Origin: a virus
IMG/VR virus record: IMGVR_UViG_3300045988_155612
Length of the DNA: 43,949 nt
Direction: 5' to 3' (one strand)
Every line of letters starts with the position of its first letter. Positions within the stretch are counted from its first letter, which is position 1. A program made the position numbers and the translations under genes. Below are positions 1 to 43,949 of the stretch, in pieces. The notes under the pieces were generated by a model. The model was given only the letters and a program-made list of their open reading frames with translations. It ran no database searches and had not been told where the DNA came from.

Positions 1-55
1 GCGCGGCAGCCAGCTTCTTAATCTGGTCAGCCAGACCCTTGACGGCACCGTCCGC
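1..55. repeat. Terminal overlap, identical to 43895-43949
   Basis: gcgcggcagccagcttcttaatctggtcagccagacccttgacggcaccgtccgc occurs at both ends; compared base by base by eye. Confidence 0.95.
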
Positions 56-7787: not shown

Positions 7788-7976
7788 GGTAGTCGAGTAG
7801 CGCGTGTAACAAAGATTCCTTATATATACATGTAATGCGAGGGAGCGAACAAGTTGTGTCGAGTGTCCCTTTACTTTTTTAAAAAATGTTTTTAAGATTT
7901 TTCGACTACCAGTACTACCAAGTAGCCAAAAGCATTGATATATAAGGCTTTTTTGAGGTAGCAGAGTAGGTAGCAC
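7788..7976. repeat. Repeat family 2, copy A (between the primase/helicase and VRR-NUC genes)
   Basis: ggtagtcgagtagc...ttccttatatatacatgtaatgcgagggagcg...cgactaccagtactaccaagtagccaaaagc...gaggtagcagagtaggtagc. By eye, roughly 75-80% identical to copy B over about 190 bp. Confidence 0.8.
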
Positions 7977-18338: not shown

Positions 18339-19141
18339 ACGCGTGGAGCAGAGAGGATATAATTATCGCCTATGCTCTTTACTGCGTTACTCCTCTCGGG
18401 AAAATCAATCCCAGCAATAAAGTCATTCAGCAGGTCGCCGAGATTATTCCTCACTCAGTCGCTTCTATCGTAATGCGCATGAGGAACTTTCGGTATATAG
18501 ACCCGAAAGTTTCCTCAGGGCTTAAGAACGTAGCGAAGGCGGACCGAATGATTTACGAGGAGTTCAAGCACGACTGGGGCTCTCTGAGTCTTGAGGCGGA
18601 GACCTTGACGGGTCTCGCTATCTTTGACTCCTCACCTTTGCAAGGAGCAAAGCCGCTTTCGTCTCTGACGAATCACGGAAGAGTATCACGGGAACGACAC
18701 TTCTTCAAGCAGGCGGTGCTTGCGGCTTACGATGACCGGTGCTTTATATCCGGCTGCGCGCTGCCGCAAATGCTCGTTGCAAGTCATATAAAACCGTACT
18801 CGCAATGCCGAAGCGAGGCGGACCGGGTCAGCCCCGACAACGGGATTTGCCTCAATACTTTTTATGATAAAGCCTTCGACCGAGGCCTTATAACTATCAC
18901 TCCTTCCATGAAAATCTATGTTTCTCCGATAATTTTGGATAGCCCTCAGGACGCTTTTACAGCCCGCTGGCTGGCTTCTCTTGACGGAATGATTTTACCC
19001 CCCCCCGATTTCCGCCGCGTAGAGAGCTTCTGGAGTACCATAACGACGAAATTTTTAGGAGGGTCACATGAATACAGTAATTTATGCTCGGTATTCTGCC
19101 GGCCCGAGACAGACCGACCAGAGTATCGAAGGGCAGCTTAG
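18335..19141 (+). CDS. HNH endonuclease (HNH_2-type, restriction-endonuclease-like) with an uncharacterised N-terminal domain
   Basis: C-terminal segment ...CFISGCALPQMLVASHIKPYSQC...DNGICLNTFYDKAFDRGLITI. ATGA overlap with the repressor stop codon. Confidence 0.7.
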   Translation: MNAWSREDIIIAYALYCVTPLGKINPSNKVIQQVAEIIPHSVASIVMRMRNFRYIDPKVSSGLKNVAKADRMIYEEFKHDWGSLSLEAETLTGLAIFDSSPLQGAKPLSSLTNHGRVSRERHFFKQAVLAAYDDRCFISGCALPQMLVASHIKPYSQCRSEADRVSPDNGICLNTFYDKAFDRGLITITPSMKIYVSPIILDSPQDAFTARWLASLDGMILPPPDFRRVESFWSTITTKFLGGSHEYSNLCSVFCRPETDRPEYRRAA

Positions 19142-20648
19142 AGTCTGCACCGACTTTTGTAAGCAGCGAGGGCTTACCGTTATCGACACATACTGCGACC
19201 GTCATATCTCAGGCCGCACAGACGAGCGACCGGAGTTCCAAAGGCTCATCGCTGACGCCAAGCGCAAGAAGTTCGAGGCGGTGGTCGTCTATAAGACAGA
19301 CCGCTTTGCCCGGAACAAATACGACAGCGCCGTTTATAAGCGGGAGCTCAAGAGGAACGGAATCCAAATCTTTTATGCGGCCGAGGCGATACCGGACGGG
19401 CCCGAGGGAATTATCCTTGAGAGCCTTATGGAAGGCCTCGCGGAATACTACTCGGCAGAGCTCGCTCAGAAAATCAAGCGGGGAATGCACGAGAGCGCTT
19501 TGAAGTGCCAGAGCACCGGAAGCGGGAGACCGCTCGGCTATCGGGTCGACGAGCAGAAGCGTTTCCAGATAGACCCAGAATCAGCCCAGACCGTTCAAAC
19601 GATTTTTAAACAGTATATTAAGGGCGAATCAAATGCGGCCATCTGTGAGCTCCTGAACAGCCGTGGACTGCGTACCGCGCAGGGTAAGCCCTTCAACAAG
19701 AACAGTATCAACCGAATTATTAAAAACCGAAAGTATATCGGCGAATACCGGTATCACGATATAGTCGTCGAAGGCGGCATGCCTGCGATTATCCCGAAGG
19801 GCACCTTTAACCTCGCTCAAGCCGAAATGGAACGCCGGCGCACTCGCAAGGCTCCAAAGTCGCCAAAGGCCGAATACCTCTTAGCCGGTAGGCTCTTCTG
19901 CGGCCATTGCAAAGGACCAATGCAGGGAGTCAGCGGTACGGGCAAGAGCGGGAACAAGTGGTACTACTATTATTGCGGGAACACTCGCGGCAAGAATAAG
20001 ACTTGCGATAAGAAGCAGGTCTCGCGCGACCGCCTCGAGCGCGCCGTGGTTGACTTTACTGTCCGCTATATCCTTCAAGAGGAAGTTCTCGAGGAACTCG
20101 CGAGAAAGGTACACGCGGCGCAAGAGCGCCAAAATGATACCGCCTCGGAGATTGCCTTTTACGAGAAGAAGCTGGCAGACAACAAGAAGTCCATTGCGAA
20201 CGTGCTGCGGGCTATCGAGTCAGGCGCGGCGACGCAGACCTTGCCTGCGCGCCTGCAGGAGCTCGAGAACGAGCAAGCGGTCATTCTGGGCGAGATTAGC
20301 TTCCTCAAGGGCAAGCGCCTCGCGTTTACAGAGGACCAGATTCTCTTTGCCCTGATGAAACATCTTGAGCCATATCCGGGTGAGTCCGAGCAGGACTACC
20401 GTCGGAGAATCATCTCTGACTTTGTTTCAGAGGTCTACTTATATGACGACCGGCTTCTTATCTACTTTAATATCAGTAGCGAAGACGGAAAACTCAAGTC
20501 CGCAGACCTCTCAAACATTGAGGGCGGCGAGTTCGACGAGGGACTCGTCAGCTCCACCAATTTAATCGCAGGTCGAACCCCTGAGGTGACGATAGTCGTC
20601 TTGCCTTACGGTTTCGTACTTGCGACCCAGATTAAGGATAGGCTTTGA
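19068..20648 (+). CDS. Large serine recombinase (integrase)
   Basis: Resolvase catalytic N-terminus VIYARYSAGPRQTDQSIEGQ. Recombinase domain. Zinc ribbon CGHCKGPMQG...YYYCGN. Coiled-coil C-terminus. Confidence 0.9.
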   Translation: MNTVIYARYSAGPRQTDQSIEGQLRVCTDFCKQRGLTVIDTYCDRHISGRTDERPEFQRLIADAKRKKFEAVVVYKTDRFARNKYDSAVYKRELKRNGIQIFYAAEAIPDGPEGIILESLMEGLAEYYSAELAQKIKRGMHESALKCQSTGSGRPLGYRVDEQKRFQIDPESAQTVQTIFKQYIKGESNAAICELLNSRGLRTAQGKPFNKNSINRIIKNRKYIGEYRYHDIVVEGGMPAIIPKGTFNLAQAEMERRRTRKAPKSPKAEYLLAGRLFCGHCKGPMQGVSGTGKSGNKWYYYYCGNTRGKNKTCDKKQVSRDRLERAVVDFTVRYILQEEVLEELARKVHAAQERQNDTASEIAFYEKKLADNKKSIANVLRAIESGAATQTLPARLQELENEQAVILGEISFLKGKRLAFTEDQILFALMKHLEPYPGESEQDYRRRIISDFVSEVYLYDDRLLIYFNISSEDGKLKSADLSNIEGGEFDEGLVSSTNLIAGRTPEVTIVVLPYGFVLATQIKDRL

Positions 20649-20666: not shown

Positions 20667-20857
20667 GGTAGTCGGTAGTCCGTTTTAACGAATTTTCCTT
20701 ATATATACATGTAATGCAAGGGAGCGACGAGATTGCGCTTTGAGTCCCTTTACTTTTTGGAAAAATCTTTTTAGTTTTTACGAACTACCAGCACTACCAA
20801 ATAGCCAAAAGCCTTGTAAATCAAAGACTTTCTTCGGTAGCAGGCTCAGTAGCAGAG
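20667..20857. repeat. Repeat family 2, copy B (downstream of the serine recombinase; its right end enters the 3' end of CDS 20821..21408)
   Basis: ggtagtcggtagtc...ttccttatatatacatgtaatgcaagggagcg...gaactaccagcactaccaaatagccaaaagc...cggtagcaggctcagtagc. Confidence 0.8.
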
Positions 20858-21519: not shown

Positions 21520-22353
21520 TTAATCAGCCCTCTCCATAGCGACCTCGCAGATACCGCAAATGAGGCTGAAGTCGGCGGTCGTCTTAACTTCCTGCCCGCA
21601 GACCGGGCAAACGTAGCGGTGAGGCTTTTCGCGTTCGGCCTTTGCTTTCTCCTCAGGCATAACGCGGGCGAACGGAACTTCAAGTACAAAGCCGTTGTCT
21701 TCGAGGGTCTTCTTGAAGGCCTCGGTCGGATTTGTGTGGGAGAAGCCCACCGTGCGGTCATAACCGATTTCAAGGTCTCTCGCCTCAGCCTCAGCCTTGA
21801 AGGTCTTGTTGTGGTAGCGGCCCTTCTGGCAAGTGTCCTGAATCTCATTTACGAGGCAGTAAAGATGGACCATCTCATGGCACAGCGTCGCGGCCGTATT
21901 AGCGGATGGGCGATTGAGGAACTCGGCGCCGATGTTGATTTCGTACTGGCCGTCACTCTCGCTCTTCCAAATCTTCTTAGTGGAGCAGTGACCGTAAGCC
22001 TTAGGGGTAGACTGAACGGTGATGACCGGTTTCGGCAGCGCGTTGTCGAAGTAGACGCGATTCAGAATGTCGAACAGGCTCTCGAGCTTAGTCACGACGT
22101 CCGACATTTTCATGGGCTCGTCGTGGTTGACTTCTGGCTCAGCGGTCTCGCTGACCTCAGCCTCAGGCTCTTCGTAGAGCTTCCAGCGACGGTCATAGCT
22201 TGCAGCAGCCATGATACTCGGCTCAGCGTTAGGCTCGTCCACGGGGACGGAGTGAATCTTGCGATTCTCCTCGTCAATGCTCACGACCAGACGGACCTCG
22301 TTGGTCTCCTTGTTGATAATCTTCTTGTTAGCGATAATGCTCATGTCTTTCAT
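21520..22353 (-). CDS. SprT-like zinc metallopeptidase with C-terminal zinc ribbon
   Basis: HExxH in TLCHEMVHLYC. C-terminal CPVCGQEV...CGICE. AAAGGAGG RBS. Confidence 0.75.
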   Translation of the reverse strand: MKDMSIIANKKIINKETNEVRLVVSIDEENRKIHSVPVDEPNAEPSIMAAASYDRRWKLYEEPEAEVSETAEPEVNHDEPMKMSDVVTKLESLFDILNRVYFDNALPKPVITVQSTPKAYGHCSTKKIWKSESDGQYEINIGAEFLNRPSANTAATLCHEMVHLYCLVNEIQDTCQKGRYHNKTFKAEAEARDLEIGYDRTVGFSHTNPTEAFKKTLEDNGFVLEVPFARVMPEEKAKAEREKPHRYVCPVCGQEVKTTADFSLICGICEVAMERAD

Positions 22354-22390: not shown

Positions 22391-22479
22391 CTGACAATTA
22401 TATTTTACCGTGTTCAGTAGAAAAAGGGAGCGCGCAAAACTGCCGGGATTCTGCGAACTTTTCGTTGCAGTTCTACCGC
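22391..22479 (-). repeat. Intergenic repeat family 1, copy 1 (upstream of the SprT-like gene)
   Basis: Core gggagcgcgcaaaactgccgggattctgcgaacttttcgttgcagttctaccgc, plus an AT-rich flank ending in ttgacaatt. Confidence 0.85.
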
Positions 22480-23270
22480 TTTTGGTAAGAAGCTGCCTCC
22501 ACGGTGTTCTTGAGCAGCATGGCGACGGTCATCGGGCCCACGCCGCCGGGTACCGGAGTAATCGCTGACGCCTTTGCCGCGACCTCCTCAAAAGCAACGT
22601 CTCCACAGAGCTTACCGTTCTCGTCCCGGTTAATTCCGACATCGATAACGACCGCCCCCGGCTTAACCATGTCTGCGGTAATAAAGCGGGGCTTACCGAC
22701 TGCCGAGATAAGTATATCGGCCTGACGAGTATAGCTCGCGAGGTCCTTCGTCTTAGAGTGGCATACGGTAACGGTGGCGTTCGCATGCAGAAGCATAAGG
22801 GCAAGTGGCTTGCCTACGATATTGCTGCGCCCGATAATGACGCAGTGCTTCCCGCTTACGTCTCCCAGCAAATGGAGGATTCCGGCCGGAGTGCAGGGCC
22901 TGAGACCAGCCTCTCCGGTCAAGAGCTTTCCAATATTATAGGGGTGGAAGCAATCCACGTCTTTCTCCGGCGGTATTGCGCCGAGTACCTTCTTCTCGTC
23001 AATGTGTTCCGGGAGAGGAAGCTGAACGAGAATACCGTCCGCCCACGCGCTGAGCCCTGCGATAGACGCGATGACCTCTTTGGTCGACGCCGTAGCCGGC
23101 AACCTGCGAGAGCAAGACCGAATACCGACCTCGGCGCAAGCGCGTTCCTTGTTGCGGACATAAACCGAGGAAGCGGGGTTGTCGCCGACCATAATAACGG
23201 CGAGCTTTGCGTCAGAGCCTTGCAAAGAAGCCTTCACCTGAGCGGCGATAGCTTTTCCGTCAATAATCAT
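22473..23270 (-). CDS. folD: Bifunctional 5,10-methylene-THF dehydrogenase/cyclohydrolase FolD
   Basis: MIIDGKAIA..., [49 protein letters not shown]. Confidence 0.88.
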
Positions 23271-23673: not shown

Positions 23674-23696
23674 CCGCGGGGCACAAGGCCCCGCGG
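23674..23696 (-). promoter_or_regulatory. GC hairpin downstream of VR2 (DGR target-recognition hairpin/cruciform candidate)
   Basis: ccgcggggc-acaag-gccccgcgg: a 9-bp perfect stem with the same 5-nt loop as the VR1 hairpin, about 17 nt past the stop codon. Confidence 0.75.
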
Positions 23697-23712: not shown

Positions 23713-24282
23713 TTAGATATAGAAGCCGAAGCAGACGCCGTTGGTGTAGTTGGCGCTGTTAATGCTCGCGCCGCCGTAGCTGTCCACAAAGCAGAAGTAG
23801 CTGGAGTAGCTCCCACGAGGAGAACGCTCCCACCACCAGTACGCATCTCCGTCTTCGTCGACCTTGATACGGTTGCGACGGTCCTTGAAGTACTCGAACT
23901 GGAAGCCGCGGTCAGGGTCATTCTCGGTCCAGTCATGTTCACCGAAGACCTCCATCTCGGAGAAGAGCCAGAGCTTGTCCTCCTCTTTGCCGAACTTGCG
24001 GGGCTTGATAGCTGCGATAAGCGCATCAGGGAGCAGCGCGATAACTTCCTCGTTGAGGTAGCGACGCATATCGCAGGCAAGCCAGCCGCCTTCGTTGGTC
24101 CACTCCTTATTCATGCGGTGGTAGCCGAGCAGATTCTTCAGCCCGATAACGCCGTCGTCCATGACGACGAACACAACCTCGCGGCCGTCCTTGAGAGTCT
24201 CGACGATTTCATCGCCGACCTTGAGCGTACCCGGATTCGCCCAGTTAAAGGCCCGGGTCTCTTTCGTTGTAATAGTTGCCAT
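23713..24282 (-). CDS. Second DGR target: stand-alone lectin-fold-like protein whose C-terminus carries VR2
   Basis: Start trimmed to MATITTKE, preceded by AGGAGG. It is paralogous to the C-terminal domain of the tail fibre (KLWLFSEMEVFG vs KLFLFSEIEIFG; WWWERSP...GVCFGF). Its last ~42 codons align with the TR. Confidence 0.85.
   Translation of the reverse strand: MATITTKETRAFNWANPGTLKVGDEIVETLKDGREVVFVVMDDGVIGLKNLLGYHRMNKEWTNEGGWLACDMRRYLNEEVIALLPDALIAAIKPRKFGKEEDKLWLFSEMEVFGEHDWTENDPDRGFQFEYFKDRRNRIKVDEDGDAYWWWERSPRGSYSSYFCFVDSYGGASINSANYTNGVCFGFYI
23722..23846 (-). repeat. DGR variable repeat VR2 (3' end of 23713..24282)
   Basis: About 123-nt alignment to the TR with 17 mismatches, all at TR adenines on the coding strand. 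Confidence 0.9.
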
Positions 24283-24311: not shown

Positions 24312-25040
24312 TTATAAGAGCGTTCTGCCCTTGAGAAGCCTTCTGATAGTCCACACGTCGGAGCAGTACATCGGCGTAAGCCAGTAGTTCTCCAATGAGT
24401 CGTCCGAGCGCATGGGCTCGGTAAGTGAGTTGCCTACTTTGATATAACCGGCGACGCCGAGAAGCGAGAGCTGGATATAACACATGTATGCTACGGTGTA
24501 ATCAACATCCTGCGCGGTCACGAGAATGTGGTTTTGCCAGTTCAGACCGGCCTTGCTTATCTGCTTAGCCGCAGCGTGAACGCCGGCAATCAAAGTAGCG
24601 CCGGCACCGCAAGCGCAATCGTTAATTGAGATATAGCCTTTCGCCTCGATAGTCGGTAGCACGTTGTCACAAGTCATTTCCGCCATCATTCGGCAAACAT
24701 CGTAAGGCGTAAAGAACTGCCCGCCGGAGTCATTGCCGAGATTAAGCGCCATAAAGATACTTCCGAGGAAGTCTTGCTCTGGATTCTTCTCGAGAGCAAG
24801 GACCACTTCCGCAGCGAGCTGAGGAAAAATCTCTTGCTCCTTCTTGTTGTACTTCTGAATCCGCTTGAGGTAGAGTTCCTCGCGCTTTTCAAAGTGGGAC
24901 TTGTCGACCGCGTTCGAAATAGCGCAAGCGTACATCGTAACGAAGTCCTGCCAGACCTCCCGTGGAGTCCAGCGGTATGTAAGCTCTCGGAAGAGCTTTA
25001 CAAAAGGTTGGTCATTGGTCTTTCCGACTCTTTTTGCCAT
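24312..25040 (-). CDS. N6-adenine-MTase-like protein, truncated, with no canonical catalytic motif IV
   Basis: Motif X-like GGQFFTPYDV and motif I-like INDCACGAGATLIAG are present. No (D/N/S)PP(Y/F/W) is seen, and the ORF ends about 95 aa after motif I. Confidence 0.6.
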   Translation of the reverse strand: MAKRVGKTNDQPFVKLFRELTYRWTPREVWQDFVTMYACAISNAVDKSHFEKREELYLKRIQKYNKKEQEIFPQLAAEVVLALEKNPEQDFLGSIFMALNLGNDSGGQFFTPYDVCRMMAEMTCDNVLPTIEAKGYISINDCACGAGATLIAGVHAAAKQISKAGLNWQNHILVTAQDVDYTVAYMCYIQLSLLGVAGYIKVGNSLTEPMRSDDSLENYWLTPMYCSDVWTIRRLLKGRTLL

Positions 25041-25411: not shown

Positions 25412-25502
25412 CTTGACATTATTTATTATGCCGCGTTTTACTGATTTCGGGAGCGCGCAAAACTGCCGGGATTTTGCGAACTTTCCGTTGTGGTTTTACC
25501 GC
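25412..25502 (-). repeat. Intergenic repeat family 1, copy 2 (upstream of the 63-aa ORF)
   Basis: Core gggagcgcgcaaaactgccgggattttgcgaactttccgttgtggttttaccgc. Confidence 0.85.
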
Positions 25503-25504
25503 TT

Positions 25505-25837
25505 TCAGTCAATCGCGTCGACCTCGCCGGCTCTCATAGCAGCCAGAATCGCGTTGAGCTCGTTTGCGAGGAAGCGGTGACACATGCGCAGCTTCATGTC
25601 AAGCTCCTTCTTCGTATACTTGCGGTCGACCGCTTTAAGGTAGTCATACCACGGGGAAAAGTCCGGGTCGAAGAGCATACAATGCGTTTCGTCATAGCAA
25701 AGCTCGAATACCTTCTTTACCTCAAAGCATTTACTAAAATGCTCTGCCGACCGGCGAACGGTCCAGTTTGTGGCCTTTACGGCGTCAGCGCACCGCTGCA
25801 GAGCGGAGTAGCTGTAGCAAGCGCGTTGGAAATTCAT
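25505..25837 (-). CDS. Hypothetical Cys/His-rich protein (110 aa)
   Basis: TAAGGAGG RBS. No motif I recognise. Confidence 0.6.
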   Translation of the reverse strand: MNFQRACYSYSALQRCADAVKATNWTVRRSAEHFSKCFEVKKVFELCYDETHCMLFDPDFSPWYDYLKAVDRKYTKKELDMKLRMCHRFLANELNAILAAMRAGEVDAID

Positions 25838-26119: not shown

Positions 26120-26211
26120 CCTTGACAATTATTATTTTACCGTGTTTGGTAAGAAAAGGGAGCGCGCAAAACTGCCGGGATTCTGCGAACTTTCCGTTGC
26201 ATTTCTACCGC
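26120..26211 (-). repeat. Intergenic repeat family 1, copy 3 (upstream of the 34-aa micro-ORF, just after the endolysin terminator)
   Basis: Core gggagcgcgcaaaactgccgggattctgcgaactttccgttgcatttctaccgc. Confidence 0.85.
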
Positions 26212-26259
26212 AAATAGTAAAAGGCCGGAGCCGTCCCACGAAGGAACGACTCCGGCCTT
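26212..26259 (-). terminator. Terminator after the endolysin gene
   Basis: On the minus strand: AAGGCCGGAG...CTCCGGCCTT (10-bp stem) followed by TTTTACTATTTG. Confidence 0.6.
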
Positions 26260-27826: not shown

Positions 27827-28130
27827 CGGGCGGCGATACCGGCAGCTCCAAGAACTTGTTATGGAGGTCGTCCATAACGCCGTTCACACCGAGAGAGTGG
27901 TACTGCTTCCAGCAGTTTTCAAAGTTCTCCCGGGCGTAGATAGGAGCGAAGCCGCGGTCCTCCCATTTGTTGTAGTCGCTAATCATCTGCGACCTGAGCA
28001 AGGCTTGCAGTCCCGCCTTTACCGCAGCCGTGTCCAGAGCGTTCTTCTTGACGAGGGAGTGTAGGTACTTGAAGATGGCCGCAATGAGCGCAGGCACGCC
28101 CAAAAGACAGAGCCATTGATAAACCGTCAT
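27816..28130 (-). CDS. Membrane-anchored protein of the lysis cassette
   Basis: N-terminal TM segment WLCLLGVPALIAAIF. Function unknown. Confidence 0.55.
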   Translation of the reverse strand: MTVYQWLCLLGVPALIAAIFKYLHSLVKKNALDTAAVKAGLQALLRSQMISDYNKWEDRGFAPIYARENFENCWKQYHSLGVNGVMDDLHNKFLELPVSPPDES

Positions 28131-28816
28131 TCAGTAACCTCCTCCCAGCCGTAGACGCCCGGCTCCCATACATTGTTGGCGACTGTGCTTGTCCAGCGCT
28201 TGCCGTTGTGCGCTACCTTATCGCCGAGACCATAGGCGTCAGTTGCGCCGAGCGGCTGAGACCATTCGGGGTATTCCGCGGTGGGGTCTCCGATTTCCTT
28301 CCAGAGACTTGCGGCCGAGGGAGGCGTCCAATCTGCCTGAGAGGTATGCGCCTGCAAGCAGCGGTAGAGCTTGCCCTCATAGGAGCAGATAGCCTTGACA
28401 GCATAGCTTACGGGGTACGCCCATGCGCTGAACTGCTCGGCATGCTCCGTGAGGGTCGTGTCGTCGAGCTGCTCAGTTTCCGCCATCTTGACAAAGATGA
28501 TATTCGCAAGCTCAGGAGCCTGCGCCTTTGCAAGTGCGGTCAAGTTCGCCTCGGTCGTGTAGAACTCCCCGGCATGGTAGAAGTAAAAGCCGGCGACGAC
28601 TCCCGCAGGAACGCTCTCGACCTCGACGAGCTTATGACTGTCGCAGAGGTAGCCGACCGTTTCAGTAGGCCAGAAGGTGTTGGAGTCGTTCGAGTAAATC
28701 GCGTCGGCTTTGTCCTGCTCACTGAGAACGACGACGCCGTTTGCCTGCCTGCGAACATAACAGGGGTGCTCGCAGATTTCGACAATGAGATTTGCCGAGT
28801 TTGTGATTAAGTACAT
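28127..28816 (-). CDS. Protein with two C-terminal CBM5/12 (ChtBD3)-like carbohydrate-binding repeats
   Basis: YEGKLYRCLQAHTSQADWTPPSAASLWKEI and GDKVAHNGKRWTSTVANNVWEPGVYGWEEV. Start chosen at MYLITN, preceded by TGGAGGAAAG. Confidence 0.6.
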   Translation of the reverse strand: MYLITNSANLIVEICEHPCYVRRQANGVVVLSEQDKADAIYSNDSNTFWPTETVGYLCDSHKLVEVESVPAGVVAGFYFYHAGEFYTTEANLTALAKAQAPELANIIFVKMAETEQLDDTTLTEHAEQFSAWAYPVSYAVKAICSYEGKLYRCLQAHTSQADWTPPSAASLWKEIGDPTAEYPEWSQPLGATDAYGLGDKVAHNGKRWTSTVANNVWEPGVYGWEEVTE

Positions 28817-30000
28817 AACGCTTTCCTCCATTCGATTTTATTGTTCGGGTGGAATCCAAACAGTTTCTTAAAATATAGGTCCATGCGTGCTACAGCGTGA
28901 AAGCTGTTACCGCGGCGCATGTGCCCGCGCCAGCTTTCATAGGCGCTGCAAATATCCGAGAGCGGGAATACGCGCCGGACGGGTTTCCCGGCGATTGTCA
29001 CGACTCGGCCCTCAGTATTCCAGAGCTTGAACTTTTTGAGCTTGCGTCGGATTTTCTTAATACTCTCAAAGCTCATCTTGCGGAGTACCTTGCCGGTCTC
29101 CGTCAGCTTGAAGCGGATTTGCAAGAACTTGAAGCCCTCGCTGAGCTTCTTGATTTTTGTCTTTTTCGTATTAAGAACGATACCGAGAGAATCACAGACC
29201 TCTTTCATGCGAGCAAGACACTCTTTGAGGTATTCCTTGCTCGGGTGAATCAGGTAGCCGTCGTCCATGTATCGGGCGTACCCTTTTATGCCGAGCTTTT
29301 CTTTGATGAAGTGGTCGAGCTTATTCGGCAGCATAAGAGCGGCAGTCTGTGAGATTTGACTTCCGAGCCCGTAGCCGATGGGACCGAAGTTATCGAGGCA
29401 CTCGTTCGCAAGAGCCCTGATTCTCACGTCATGCACGCGCTTTGCCAGCTCACGGCTGACCGGCCAGTGCTGAGCGTTGGCGAAGTAGTTGGAAAAATCA
29501 AAGAGAAGAACATAGCCCTCGCGCCCGTATTTCCTGTAATGCCTTTGCAAGTGGCAGGAGGGGCGGTTAAGAGCGAAGTCGATTCCCTTGTTCTCAGTAC
29601 TTGCGCCGTTGTCATAGATGAATGCCGGCTTGAGCGTCGGGTTTATGACCTTATCGCAGAGCGTTCTCTGCACGACGCGCTCGCTGATATGAATACTTCT
29701 GATATGCCGCATTTTCCCTCGGTCGTAGAGGTCAAACTCAATAAAGCCTCTGCTCTTATACGACCCGTCGAGAAGCGTGCGGCGCGTTGTCGCCGTATTC
29801 GTTACAAGGTTGAAACGGTACATTTGCGTAGAGCTTTTCCAGCTAACGCCGCGGCAGCAAATATGCCCGGCCTGATATAGATTTTCATAAGAAAAGACGT
29901 CCTCAAAGTCTCCGCAGGATTTGCTGAGAGCGAGGCGTCTTTCTTGTCGTTTCTTGACTCGCCTTTGATAGCGAGCCTCGTGTCTTTCTTCGCTTGTCAT
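28807..30000 (-). CDS. DGR reverse transcriptase
   Basis: YMDD box (GYARYMDDGYLIH) and the DGR-type motif LGSQISQ. Lies next to the TR. Start trimmed to MTSEERHEARY. Confidence 0.9.
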   Translation of the reverse strand: MTSEERHEARYQRRVKKRQERRLALSKSCGDFEDVFSYENLYQAGHICCRGVSWKSSTQMYRFNLVTNTATTRRTLLDGSYKSRGFIEFDLYDRGKMRHIRSIHISERVVQRTLCDKVINPTLKPAFIYDNGASTENKGIDFALNRPSCHLQRHYRKYGREGYVLLFDFSNYFANAQHWPVSRELAKRVHDVRIRALANECLDNFGPIGYGLGSQISQTAALMLPNKLDHFIKEKLGIKGYARYMDDGYLIHPSKEYLKECLARMKEVCDSLGIVLNTKKTKIKKLSEGFKFLQIRFKLTETGKVLRKMSFESIKKIRRKLKKFKLWNTEGRVVTIAGKPVRRVFPLSDICSAYESWRGHMRRGNSFHAVARMDLYFKKLFGFHPNNKIEWRKALCT

Positions 30001-30231
30001 TAAAAATTGTCCCCTTTGTACAGTGTTGCACGCGTAAAAGTAACTGCATAGTAGTACCGCCCATGAAACACGGTCCGCGTAAACCGTGCCATGCAAGCAG
30101 CGTCCGAGCGACTACATCAAAGGAGTGTTTTAGCCAAAAGGCAGGGTACGAGTCATCCTTCCATAAAGGTACTGATTTCAGCGGGAGACGCAAGCGTCTA
30201 CTGCTTACTTTGTCGGACCTGATTCCTTATG

Positions 30232-30356
30232 GAATCCGAAGCAGACGCCGTTGGTGTTGTTGGCGTTGTTATTGTTCGCGTTGCCGTTGCTGTTCACATT
30301 GCAGAAGTTGTTGGAGTTGCTCCCATTAGGAGAACGCTCCCACCACCAGTTCGCGG
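30232..30356 (-). repeat. DGR template repeat (TR), non-coding
   Basis: On the minus strand it reads TGGTGGTGGGAGCGTTCTCCTAATGGGAGCAACTCCAACAACTTCTGCAATGTGAACAGCAACGGCAACGCGAACAATAACAACGCCAACAACACCAACGGCGTCTGCTTCGGATTC, which is rich in AAC codons. It lies between avd and the RT gene. Confidence 0.92.
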
Positions 30357-30395
30357 CGCAAAGACAACAGTATCATGACAGGACCCATATATCGG

Positions 30396-30821
30396 TCAGG
30401 GCAGATTCTTGAATCGCTCCTTATCCGATTTCTTTACGCCGGAAATTAGCTTAGCTTCTTCGCTGATGAGAGAAGCCCACTCCTCGAGAGCATTATCAAG
30501 CCAGCGCAGCTTTTCAGGATTCTGCTTGAGAAGGTCGGCCATGATTCCGAGCTGACCGATAAGCGCCTGAAGTGTAGCGTTAGCCTCGATAAGGTGGTCT
30601 CGTCGGAGCTGTACTTCATGCTGATTTCCGGGAAAAACGCTGTTCGCCATTTTGACCTCATTGTAGACGGTATCGGCGAGAGTGCTTAGTTCCTGAGCGC
30701 CGTAGAAGGTATACCTCTTCGGCATTTTCAGGCAGCATTTTCTTGTATGCACAGCGAGATTGCGCGCGGTCTCAACGAACTGGACCGAGCTATCGCCGCG
30801 CAGTGCTTTATATACTGACAT
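30396..30821 (-). CDS. avd: Accessory variability determinant (Avd; four-helix-bundle, 23S-rRNA-IVS protein family)
   Basis: 141 aa, helical, with ...CLKMPKRYTFYGAQEL.... Lies between the VR-bearing gene and the TR. AGGAGG RBS. Confidence 0.8.
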   Translation of the reverse strand: MSVYKALRGDSSVQFVETARNLAVHTRKCCLKMPKRYTFYGAQELSTLADTVYNEVKMANSVFPGNQHEVQLRRDHLIEANATLQALIGQLGIMADLLKQNPEKLRWLDNALEEWASLISEEAKLISGVKKSDKERFKNLP

Positions 30822-30840
30822 AGTTCGCTTTTTCCTCCTA

Positions 30841-30861
30841 CCGGGGCCACAAGGGCCCCGG
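30841..30861 (-). promoter_or_regulatory. GC hairpin downstream of VR1 (DGR target-recognition hairpin/cruciform candidate)
   Basis: ccggggcc-acaag-ggccccgg: an 8-bp perfect stem, about 20 nt past the stop codon. Confidence 0.75.
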
Positions 30862-30880
30862 ATTGACTAAAGATAGTAGA

Positions 30881-32515
30881 TTAAACACAGAAGCCGAAGC
30901 AGACGCCGTCGGCGTCGCTGGCGTTGCTACCGCGCGCGTTGCCGCTGCTGTCCACACCGCAGAAGCTGTAGGAGCCGCTCCCATAAGGAGAACGCTCCCA
31001 CCACCAGCTCGCGGACCCTGTACCGTTGGCGAGGTACTTGATTCTGTTTGCCGCGGTTGCGAAGTAGCTGTACTGCGAGCCCTCGCCGGCTTTCGAGTAG
31101 GTAGTCGCGCCGAAAATCTCAATCTCAGAGAAGAGGAAGAGCTTCATCGAGTTTGTGTTGATAGTCGAGCTCTGACTGCCCGCAGAGGTCTTTTTATTGA
31201 CGTTCTTGAGCACAGCTTGCAGGTCAGTCGGCAGAGTCGGCAAAAGCGTGTTTTGCAGCCACGAGTACATTTCAGAGCCGGTAAAGCCGCCGCTGTTCGT
31301 ATTCGAGGCATTCATTCGGCGCGTAGTTGCCATAAGGTTTTTCAGGCCAAGGGTAATACCGGCTTTACCGCCGCTTGCGAGGTCGTCGTGATTGAAGCCC
31401 ATAATTACGAGCGTCAGGGTCTCACTTCCGACCGTGATGTCCTTCGTATCGCCGACAGACCAGAGCTGAGAAGCCTTGCCTGCGGCAGACGCCTTAGCAA
31501 TCTGCGCCCATGTGTTTTTGGAGAAGGTCGCATTGAAGAACAGACACTCGATGGAGTAGGTCTGCCCGGAGGTCGTGATTGCCACGCTCACGGGGTCGGT
31601 CGTCTCTCCGCTCTTCGTAGCGGTAACGGTATAGGTACCGAACGCGGTAATCGTCAGGGAGAGCACGCCACTCGAAGGCACGGTGCCGGTAAAGGTCTTC
31701 GCGCCGTTTGTGGCGGTAACGGTGGCACCGGGGTCCGAAGTTACCTTCAAGGTCGCAGAGAAATAGGAGAGCGAGATTTTATACTGCTTTACATCGTCAA
31801 CGACAACGTTCTCAGTCGCGGTCTGCCCGTCCTTTACTGCCGTTACGACCCATGTGCCGTACCCCGTCAGGTTGAAGGTCACGGTACCGGTGCTTGTCGC
31901 GGTCAAGGTCTTAGAGCCGCATTTACAGGTAACGGAGCTGCCACTCGGGATTGTGGCGATAATCTGAGGAGGCACGCCGACCGTACCAAGCTGAGATTCG
32001 GGAATCTTACCGTCGCTTCCCAGAGTAGCCACTCCGCCTGCCGCGCCTTTCTGCGAGGTAGGAATATAGCCGAGAGCGGGAATTTGCGCGACCGGGACTT
32101 TCTTATTCGCATCAAGGGACGCGACGCCATTTGCGGCGGCCTTCTGAGAAGTTGGAATGTAATTGAGCGAAGGAAGCTGTCCCGAGGGGACCTTGCCGTC
32201 AGCGCCCAGACTCGCAACGCCTCCTGCGGTGCCCTTTTGAGAAGCGGGGATATAGTCCATAGCGGGAAGCTGCCCCGAGGGGACCTTGCCGTCAGAGCCG
32301 AGGCTTGCGACGCCTCCCGCAGCCCCTTTCTGTGAAGCCGGGATATAGGACAGGCTCGGAAGCTGGCTCTCTTTCAGCTTGCCGGATTCGTCGAGGTCTG
32401 CCTTGTCCTTGAGTGCGGCGTCGATTTTATCCGCGTTCTCATTGAGGTCTGCAATGTCCGCGAAGTCTTCCGGCGCCGGCTTTTTCAGTTTGTAGTTGTC
32501 TGTGTAGGTAGCCAT
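30881..32515 (-). CDS. Tail fibre / receptor-binding protein carrying DGR VR1 at its C-terminus
   Basis: Start trimmed to MATYTDNYKLKKPAPEDF (TAATG overlap with the upstream gene). Four 31-aa repeats, Ig-like Thr/Ser-rich segments, and a C-terminal ...WWWERSPYGSGSYSFCGVDSSGNARGSNASDADGVCFGFCV. Confidence 0.88.
   Translation of the reverse strand: MATYTDNYKLKKPAPEDFADIADLNENADKIDAALKDKADLDESGKLKESQLPSLSYIPASQKGAAGGVASLGSDGKVPSGQLPAMDYIPASQKGTAGGVASLGADGKVPSGQLPSLNYIPTSQKAAANGVASLDANKKVPVAQIPALGYIPTSQKGAAGGVATLGSDGKIPESQLGTVGVPPQIIATIPSGSSVTCKCGSKTLTATSTGTVTFNLTGYGTWVVTAVKDGQTATENVVVDDVKQYKISLSYFSATLKVTSDPGATVTATNGAKTFTGTVPSSGVLSLTITAFGTYTVTATKSGETTDPVSVAITTSGQTYSIECLFFNATFSKNTWAQIAKASAAGKASQLWSVGDTKDITVGSETLTLVIMGFNHDDLASGGKAGITLGLKNLMATTRRMNASNTNSGGFTGSEMYSWLQNTLLPTLPTDLQAVLKNVNKKTSAGSQSSTINTNSMKLFLFSEIEIFGATTYSKAGEGSQYSYFATAANRIKYLANGTGSASWWWERSPYGSGSYSFCGVDSSGNARGSNASDADGVCFGFCV
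30890..31014 (-). repeat. DGR variable repeat VR1 (3' end of the tail-fibre gene)
   Basis: 125-nt alignment to the TR with 20 mismatches, all at TR adenines on the coding strand. Confidence 0.92.
31991..32362 (-). repeat. Four tandem 93-nt (31-aa) repeats inside the tail-fibre gene
   Basis: LPSLSYIPASQKGAAGGVASLGSDGKVPSGQ / LPAMDYIPASQKGTAGGVASLGADGKVPSGQ / LPSLNYIPTSQKAAANGVASLDANKKVPVAQ / IPALGYIPTSQKGAAGGVATLGSDGKIPESQ. Confidence 0.85.
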
Positions 32516-43894: not shown

Positions 43895-43949
43895 GCGCGG
43901 CAGCCAGCTTCTTAATCTGGTCAGCCAGACCCTTGACGGCACCGTCCGC
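43895..43949. repeat. Terminal overlap, identical to 1-55
   Basis: Same 55-mer as bases 1-55. Confidence 0.95.

Follow-up and report, generated by a model that had tools for sequence, protein, structure and literature searches.

The viral DNA considered here, IMG/VR record IMGVR_UViG_3300045988_155612, is a stretch of 43,949 nucleotides (nt), referred to below as the window. On its minus strand it carries a tail-fibre-like gene, a short open reading frame (ORF), a non-coding repeat, and a reverse transcriptase (RT) gene. An earlier note, made from the sequence alone, took this locus for a complete diversity-generating retroelement (DGR) and called it a non-standard system. The locus raises the questions of whether the DGR is complete, whether it diversifies its targets, and how unusual it is. 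Our results make it very probable that this is a complete DGR of a temperate phage with a contractile tail, in which a template repeat (TR), together with the RT and an Avd-like protein, diversifies two DUF6273 target proteins. The retroelement has the standard target-avd-TR-RT layout plus one non-adjacent target in the same phage, and every testable defining feature of a DGR was present, the target fold aside. The most common class of DGR architecture is built on an avd-TR-RT core, and in prophages it is common for a target to be non-adjacent (PMC5758913). Because this is the commonest architecture, the label "non-standard" overstates the novelty. The assignment as a DGR is correct and strongly supported, and the system is biologically ordinary and of a well-known kind. 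All of the parts named in the earlier note were found again; what it missed were the RT-2 RNA, the hairpins at the target sites, and, within the coordinates that it described, the remote second variable repeat (VR2). With this locus, the known DGRs gain a member that is cleanly documented and evidently active, from an uncultured but widespread gut prophage lineage.

Adenine-specific variation and the proteins of the retroelement

The repeat copies were compared by machine, ungapped and on the minus strand. Between TR and the variable repeat of the tail-fibre-like gene (VR1), 20 of 125 positions were mismatched, and all 20 lay at TR adenines (16 A>G, 2 A>C, and 2 A>T). Since TR holds 37 adenines in 125 nt, the hypergeometric probability of this outcome is 2.2e-13. 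The result is identical, base for base, to the hand alignment of the earlier note. VR2 differed from TR at 17 of 123 positions, again only at TR adenines (17/17; P = 5e-11), and the 25 differences between VR1 and VR2 were all located at TR-A positions. Mismatches at non-adenine TR positions, which the earlier note had named as evidence that would count against a DGR, numbered zero between TR and its own VRs in this genome. The 21-nt core of the repeat occurs in only three copies within the window. Read in the VR frame, TR gives the Asn-rich sequence NGSNSNNFCNVNSNGNANNNNANNTNG (also written as ...NWWWERSPNGSNSNNFCNVNSNGNANNNNANNTNGVCFGF), and the counted AAC codons (Table 1) bear out the richness described before. 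Of the 37 TR adenines, 36 fall at the first or second position of a codon. Twenty codons are mutable (16 AAC/AAT, plus AGC, ACC, and GAG), none of which can turn into a stop, and they allow ~10^21 protein variants per target. TR itself was rightly described as non-coding: no minus-strand start-to-stop ORF of at least 50 amino acids (aa) covers it.

Diversification was also observed at the population level. RT relatives were collected from 44 IMG/VR loci and 18 genome loci, TR was recovered from 31 of the IMG/VR loci, and the comparison was made between contigs, with one consensus sequence each. An identical TR was found in 20 of these 31 related loci, and under this one TR all 16 recoverable VR1 sequences and all 11 recoverable VR2 sequences were distinct. 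In the whole set, none of the 26 VR1 copies (25 related loci and the window) and none of the 16 VR2 copies (15 related loci and the window) was the same as another. Under the identical TR, 34-35 of the 37 A positions were variable in the VRs, as against 4-7 of the 88 other positions; for VR1 the counts were 34 and 4. The pooled TR-to-VR spectrum comprised 433 A>G, 181 A>T, and 95 A>C changes and 10 changes at non-A positions, and the entropy was 0.06 bits in TR versus 1.25 bits at the A positions of the VRs. In addition, TR and VRs changed in concert. Of 47 cases in which TR had itself been substituted to a non-A base, 45 showed the new base in the cognate VRs as well, including a T>C of the window that is present in TR, VR1, and VR2, and this is a signature of repeated transfer of information from TR to VR. 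The hypervariability predicted in the earlier note was thus seen across related contigs. The small target protein was also represented in the protein database by hundreds of 90% clusters, with 7,170 distinct member sequences for P0121 and 876, 464, 355, and 285 members in further clusters. These cluster sizes are an independent footprint of hypervariation in public metagenomes.

The RT matched Pfam RVT_1 (1.2e-11) and phrog_1423 (5.8e-74). Its best relative in the PDB was bRT of Bordetella phage BPP-1 (8ub7_A; E 2.6e-18, 69 bits); a group II maturase reached 3.9e-5, and retron RTs were absent from the PDB matches at E <= 0.001. The grouping with retron or group II enzymes, which the earlier note had listed as a possible objection, is therefore not what the PDB search returned. 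Both the YMDD box and the LGSQISQ motif reported before were located, and LGSQISQ aligns with IGSLTSQ of bRT. The (I/V/L)GxxxSQ motif defines the DGR RT clade (PMC3521204). Judged from its sequence, the enzyme is of the DGR type by motif 4 ((I/V/L)GxxxSQ), motif 5 (YxDD), and its nearest solved relative. A start at the TTG of a mechanically called ORF of 429 aa was rejected, as the gene would then run through a structured RNA, and the ATG at 30000 was used.

The 141-aa ORF, which had been described as an Avd-like four-helix bundle, matched phrog_3206, "Avd protein of DGR", at 2.7e-5. Its AlphaFold2 model, built from a 39-sequence alignment, showed four long helices with a predicted local distance difference test score (pLDDT) of 85.8. 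The top Foldseek matches of the model were 2gsc, then 8ub7_C and 8ub8_D (Avd of BPP-1), and 4dwl; the template modeling score against 8ub7_C and 8ub8_D was 0.74-0.77 on the target, and several BFVD entries named "Avd-like protein" were among the top fold matches. The assignment of this ORF as Avd-like is supported by the PHROG profile together with the predicted fold.

Two proteins carry a VR, in both cases at the C-terminal end of a DUF6273 domain. Target 1 consists of four N-terminal repeats of ~31 aa, a middle region, and the C-terminal DUF6273 (Pfam 1.3e-19, residues 395-538), and it matched PHROG tail-fibre and minor-tail families. One base is common to its start ATG and the stop of the Mu Gp48-like gene upstream, and VR1 is at the 3' end of the gene, where the earlier note had placed it. 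The gene for target 2 lies 6.5 kb from TR, between an N6-methylase-like gene and a FolD gene, and its ATG is preceded by an AGGAGG ribosome-binding site. DUF6273 has been assigned a C-type lectin fold (PMC10743442). Receptor binding by the target, which the earlier note predicted, may be supposed solely from the position and family of the target. For annotation, analyses of host range and strain tracking should allow for hypervariability in the tip of the tail fibre and in a second, small protein of the lectin type.

Table 1. Coordinates of the DGR and its target sites in the window
Feature	Position	Strand	Details
Target gene 1, 544-aa tail-fibre-like protein	30881-32515	minus	C-terminal DUF6273 carrying VR1
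VR1	30890-31014	minus	spans the final ~42 codons of target 1, up to 6 nt from the stop
GC-rich hairpin/cruciform, CCGGGGCC-CTTGT-GGCCCCGG	30841-30861	minus	28 nt after the end of the VR1 IMH
avd-like accessory gene, 141 aa	30396-30821	minus	pI 8.9; phrog_3206 and predicted fold
TR, non-coding	30232-30356	minus	37 adenines; 13 AAC codons in the VR frame
IMH*-type TR 3' end, A-UUCCAUAAGG	30225-30235	minus	UUCCAUAA(GG) pairs with 30159-30169
RT-2 RNA (Rfam RF03077)	29991-30222	minus	154.6 bits (gathering threshold 40); full-length model, 1-222
RT-2 segment CCUUUAUGGAA	30159-30169	minus	complementary to the TR 3' end; candidate primer strand
DGR-type RT, 397 aa	28807-30000	minus	LGSQISQ at residues 212-218; YMDD at 244-247
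Target gene 2, 189-aa single-domain DUF6273 protein	23713-24282	minus	Pfam 5.6e-16
VR2	23722-23844	minus	at the 3' end of target 2, up to 6 nt from the stop
GC-rich hairpin, CCGCGGGGC-CTTGT-GCCCCGCGG	23674-23696	minus	25 nt after the end of the VR2 IMH

The ends of the repeats and the RT-2 RNA

At their 3' ends the VRs read GCTTCGGCTTC and TR reads GCTTCGGATTC, and the extracted sequences confirm the difference between the initiation of mutagenic homing site (IMH) and its TR counterpart (IMH*) that had been proposed for this locus. The GC-rich run GGCGTCTGCTTCGG is identical in TR and the VRs. The next base is C in all VR copies displayed and A (A30235) in TR, and beyond this position the TR and VR sequences diverge. 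Both VRs end in GGCGTCTGCTTCGGCTTC; the sequences that come next (TRYRTYTAATC) are related to each other and contain the stop codon. The last 4 nt of TR, ATTC (30232-30235), are part of the IMH*-type end. Downstream of each IMH is a hairpin whose stem is all-GC, with 8 bp at VR1 and 9 bp at VR2. Distant relatives have a hairpin at the same distance with other stems, for example CCGGCCC-GTAA-GGGCCGG and CCGCCCGC-CTCAGT-GCGGGCGG. These hairpins match the hairpin or cruciform that homing in BPP-1 requires, for which GC stems of 7-10 bp located 4-34 bp from VRs have been described (PMC3240598). A reading of the VR hairpins as terminators was rejected, as they have no T-tract and were absent from the terminator scan.

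The spacer of ~230 nt that the earlier note described between TR and the RT gene was correct in size (231 nt), but it is not a mere spacer. The gap is filled by the structured RNA RT-2, which also reaches 10 nt into the RT ORF, across its start codon. RT-2 was also directly upstream of the RT in 9 of the 11 distant relatives scanned (RT identity 42-65%). It is one of 19 RT-associated motifs described by Weinberg et al. in 2017; RT-10 was shown at the corresponding position of BPP-1, and a DGR role for the other motifs was only speculated (PMC5737381). Similar to the original Rfam motif, the RNA in the window is directly upstream of an RT gene and matches the model over its full length. The original description left the function of RT-2 open, as either retron or DGR (PMC5737381), whereas here the RNA is found, in the relatives examined as in the window, between a verified TR and a DGR RT and pairs with the TR end.

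This pairing involves UUCCAUAA (30234-30227), directly after CGG-A, which is complementary to RT-2 positions 30159-30166. The GAA with which this RT-2 segment ends is part of the invariant motif GAAGGA. Across ten distinct lineages, 90% of the cells of the 8-bp helix between the TR 3' end and RT-2 were paired, compared with 70% in column shuffles (0 of 500 reached the observed value) and 41-61% in slid registers, and the helix covaried, with compensatory double changes in 5 of its 8 pairs. In this RT clade, RT-2 evidently serves as the DGR RNA and forms a covarying helix with the TR 3' end; such pairing of IMH* would also explain why the TR end is unlike the VR end. A local hairpin, GAUUCC-AUAA-GGAAUC (30221-30236, minus strand), was also observed at the TR 3' end; A30235, the IMH*-specific base, is part of it, and the hairpin may represent an alternative conformation. 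As a conserved element it was rejected, since it belongs to close relatives and the long-range helix is general. In a brief look by eye, no convincing pairing of the cPRT-stop type was seen between the region upstream of TR and the 3' end of RT-2.

By homology with BPP-1, we propose that an RNA containing TR and the downstream RT-2, probably with the 3' region of avd included, would be bound by a complex of RT and Avd as a ribonucleoprotein. The TR 3' end UUCCAUAA would pair with the RT-2 segment ending in the invariant GAA, and the resulting template:primer duplex would resemble the TR:Sp duplex of BPP-1, which has been defined by experiment. The cDNA would then be cis-primed at this duplex, with faithful copying of every template base but adenine, opposite which any base may be inserted. 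It would replace the homologous VR at two sites, the C-terminal DUF6273 of the tail fibre (VR1) and the small stand-alone DUF6273 protein (VR2). Each target site would be marked by the IMH (..GCTTCGGCTTC) and by the GC-rich hairpin 25-28 nt downstream, for which the analogy with BPP-1 suggests a role in homing.

A broader proposal can be offered tentatively, with slightly less than an even chance of being right: that RT-2 is the cis-priming and scaffold RNA of a large DGR clade in phages of gut Clostridia, and that target 2 is a non-virion protein expressed by the prophage. In this proposal, the duplex of template and primer would consist of the TR 3' end and, in RT-2, the invariant GAAGGA with the variable bases on its 5' side, and the need to pair with RT-2 would be the very reason why IMH* is unlike the IMH. 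Target 2, which is located in an accessory, lysogeny-proximal module between the methylase-like gene and FolD, might be expressed from the prophage rather than being a virion protein. If true, target 2 would equip the lysogen itself with a hypervariable binding protein. What is modestly new here is the link of an orphan Rfam motif, RT-2, to DGR function, which provides a second, sequence-unrelated DGR RNA for probing the generality of cis-priming.

Alternative explanations and related systems

The repeats might instead be ordinary paralogous C-terminal domains that differ through point mutation, recombination, or gene conversion, next to an RT from a retron, a group II intron, or a defence system. 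The RT does have NCBIfam matches to a group II intron RT (65 bits), Drt3a (29 bits), and retron St85 (25 bits), all of them below the cut-offs of 300, 200, and 235, respectively. However, 37 of 37 mismatches were at adenines of one copy only, the non-coding one, and the variation across contigs was confined to A positions. This adenine specificity has already refuted the explanation, and its probability is negligible. In addition, a DGR RT was the strongest solved relative by 13 orders of magnitude in E-value, and a scan of the whole window with Rfam at gathering thresholds returned RT-2 only, with no group II intron or retron RNA. It is also very improbable that the DGR is a fossil, active in the ancestry of the phage but silent now in this genome, with VR differences that were merely inherited. 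Present activity cannot be revealed by a single assembled sequence, and one consensus per contig was compared. Nevertheless, no ORF is disrupted, the catalytic YMDD and the SQ motif are both present, RT-2 matches the full-length model, and the IMH and both hairpins are intact. The lack of any non-A mismatch between TR and the VRs in this genome means that there has been no post-inactivation drift, and every close relative contig (RT identity 95-99%) had a different VR, implying very recent turnover.

A further possibility, less remote but still unlikely, is that the DGR works and RT-2 takes no part in priming. It could be, for example, a leader that regulates RT translation, with priming elsewhere or via the hairpin at the TR end. 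The overlap of RT-2 with the RT start codon would agree with this, the local hairpin competes for the same TR nucleotides in close relatives, and Weinberg et al. only speculated on RT-2 (PMC5737381). However, the covarying helix is present in lineages that do not have the local hairpin (L033, L038, L041, L042, L049, and L050), and RT-2 sits where BPP-1 has its Sp RNA, which is required for cDNA synthesis (bioRxiv 10.1101/2023.10.23.563531). A complete DGR with RT-2 as its RNA is the reading that we prefer, and several points weigh against it. The window is one assembled sequence, and the TR/VR differences could in principle date from earlier generations. The 141-aa ORF had no Pfam, NCBIfam, or PDB sequence match, either as a single protein or as the 39-sequence profile, and the Foldseek E-values of the helix bundle were weak (0.17). 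The model of the 189-aa target had a mean pLDDT of 68.9, with values <50 across the VR, and its Foldseek matches in the PDB had E > 2; because the model is poor over the VR, the C-type lectin fold of the targets rests on the published assignment (PMC10743442). The VR hairpin loops have 5 nt (CTTGT), without the 4-nt GRNA loop that is important in BPP-1. The register of the TR:RT-2 helix was picked by eye from the same 10 sequences, and the helix has a competitor in the local hairpin at 30221-30236, which was present only in close relatives and L048.

Among known systems, the DGR of BPP-1 (mtd-avd-TR-brt) shares with the window the gene order of target, avd, TR, structured RNA, and RT. It also has a homologous RT with the SQ motif and YMDD, the same Avd fold (predicted here), A-specific mutagenesis, the IMH/IMH* asymmetry, a GC hairpin after the VR, and pairing of the TR 3' end with downstream RNA. 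The two systems differ in several respects. The similarity of the RTs is only remote (69 bits), the downstream RNA is RT-10 in BPP-1 and RT-2 here, and the hairpin loop is GAAA in BPP-1 and CTTGT (5 nt) here. The target of BPP-1 is Mtd, whereas the window has two DUF6273 targets, one of them 6.5 kb away, and the host here is a Gram-positive gut anaerobe.

The Faecalibacterium phages Lelie, CP11, Roos, Pioen, and FP_Taranis (PMC11792537) also have gut hosts of the Oscillospiraceae type and DUF6273 targets with the VR at the C-terminus of the domain. In Lelie and CP11, one TR serves one large and one small DUF6273 target (PMC11792537). The C-terminal half of the window tail fibre is 34% identical to the targets of FP_Taranis, Pioen, and Roos, and the RTs of the Faecalibacterium phage DGRs are 31-37% identical to the window RT. 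However, the phage here is a different one, and its RT is closer to those of Roseburia phage Shimadzu (46% identity), the nearest named phage, and of the human faecal contig MT837512 (49%). No megablast match of the DGR region or of the 14 kb of structural genes was found in 50,697 GenBank phage records. Similarly, in the gut phage DGRs of nd4 and nd12 one TR serves two targets, tentaclin and tgt2, the latter described as small DUF6273 proteins (PMC10743442), and the population evidence is likewise an identical TR with differing VRs. Their large target is a tentaclin with an N-terminal VR, in contrast to the tail-fibre-like protein with a C-terminal VR in the window, and their RTs are only 30-36% identical to the window RT.

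Genome context and neighbouring elements

An exact 55-nt direct repeat is present at the ends of the window (1-55 = 43895-43949), indicating a contig assembled as a circle, in which ~43.9 kb probably make up the entire phage genome. A contractile tail is indicated by the minus-strand genes upstream of the tail fibre, namely the Mu Gp48-like, Baseplate_J, sheath initiator, and YQBQ-like genes. Downstream of the RT are a CBM_5_12 protein, three small ORFs, and an endolysin with amidase, SPOR, and CW_7 domains. With baseplate genes on one side and the endolysin on the other, the DGR does lie at the junction of the tail-fibre and lysis modules, as the earlier note had stated. The closest RTs were found in prophages of Flavonifractor sp. 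HCP28S3_F3 (97%) and of metagenome-assembled genomes of Clostridiales and Oscillospiraceae. The phage is a temperate, myovirus-type phage of Flavonifractor/Oscillospiraceae, where its close relatives are prophages. The CBM_5_12 protein (234 aa; 28127-28831, minus strand) has two CBM_5_12 modules (E 3.4e-17), and the start of its ORF overlaps the 3' end of the RT gene by 25 nt. With the DGR on one side and putative holin and endolysin genes on the other, it could be a tail or lysis accessory protein.

Target 2 is found beyond the lysis genes, near a SprT-like gene and a large serine recombinase gene. The recombinase (19068-20648, plus strand) has Resolvase, Recombinase, and Zn ribbon domains, and the other neighbours are a protein of the SprT-like metalloprotease family (21520-22353, minus strand) and a short N6-DNA-methylase-like protein (24312-25040, minus strand). 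The genes flanking target 2 fit a lysogeny and accessory module. Directly downstream of target 2 is what appears to be an auxiliary metabolic gene, a full-length FolD (methylenetetrahydrofolate dehydrogenase/cyclohydrolase; 22473-23270, minus strand) that matches both Pfam domains (E 5e-72 and 5e-32).

An element of ~93 nt was present in three copies, 75-87% identical, on the plus strand (22401-22493, 25424-25516, and 26133-26225). Each copy starts with a sigma-70-like promoter (TTGACA, ~17 nt, TATTTT/TATTAT) followed by the conserved leader GGGAGCGCGCAAAACTGCCGGGATTYTGCGAACTTT. The copies face the 3' ends of minus-strand genes, namely FolD, a 110-aa ORF, and the endolysin, and they may give rise to antisense or convergent small transcripts; no Rfam family matched them. 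In addition, two direct repeats of 169 nt with 75% identity were found 12.9 kb apart, at 7807-7975 and 20686-20854.

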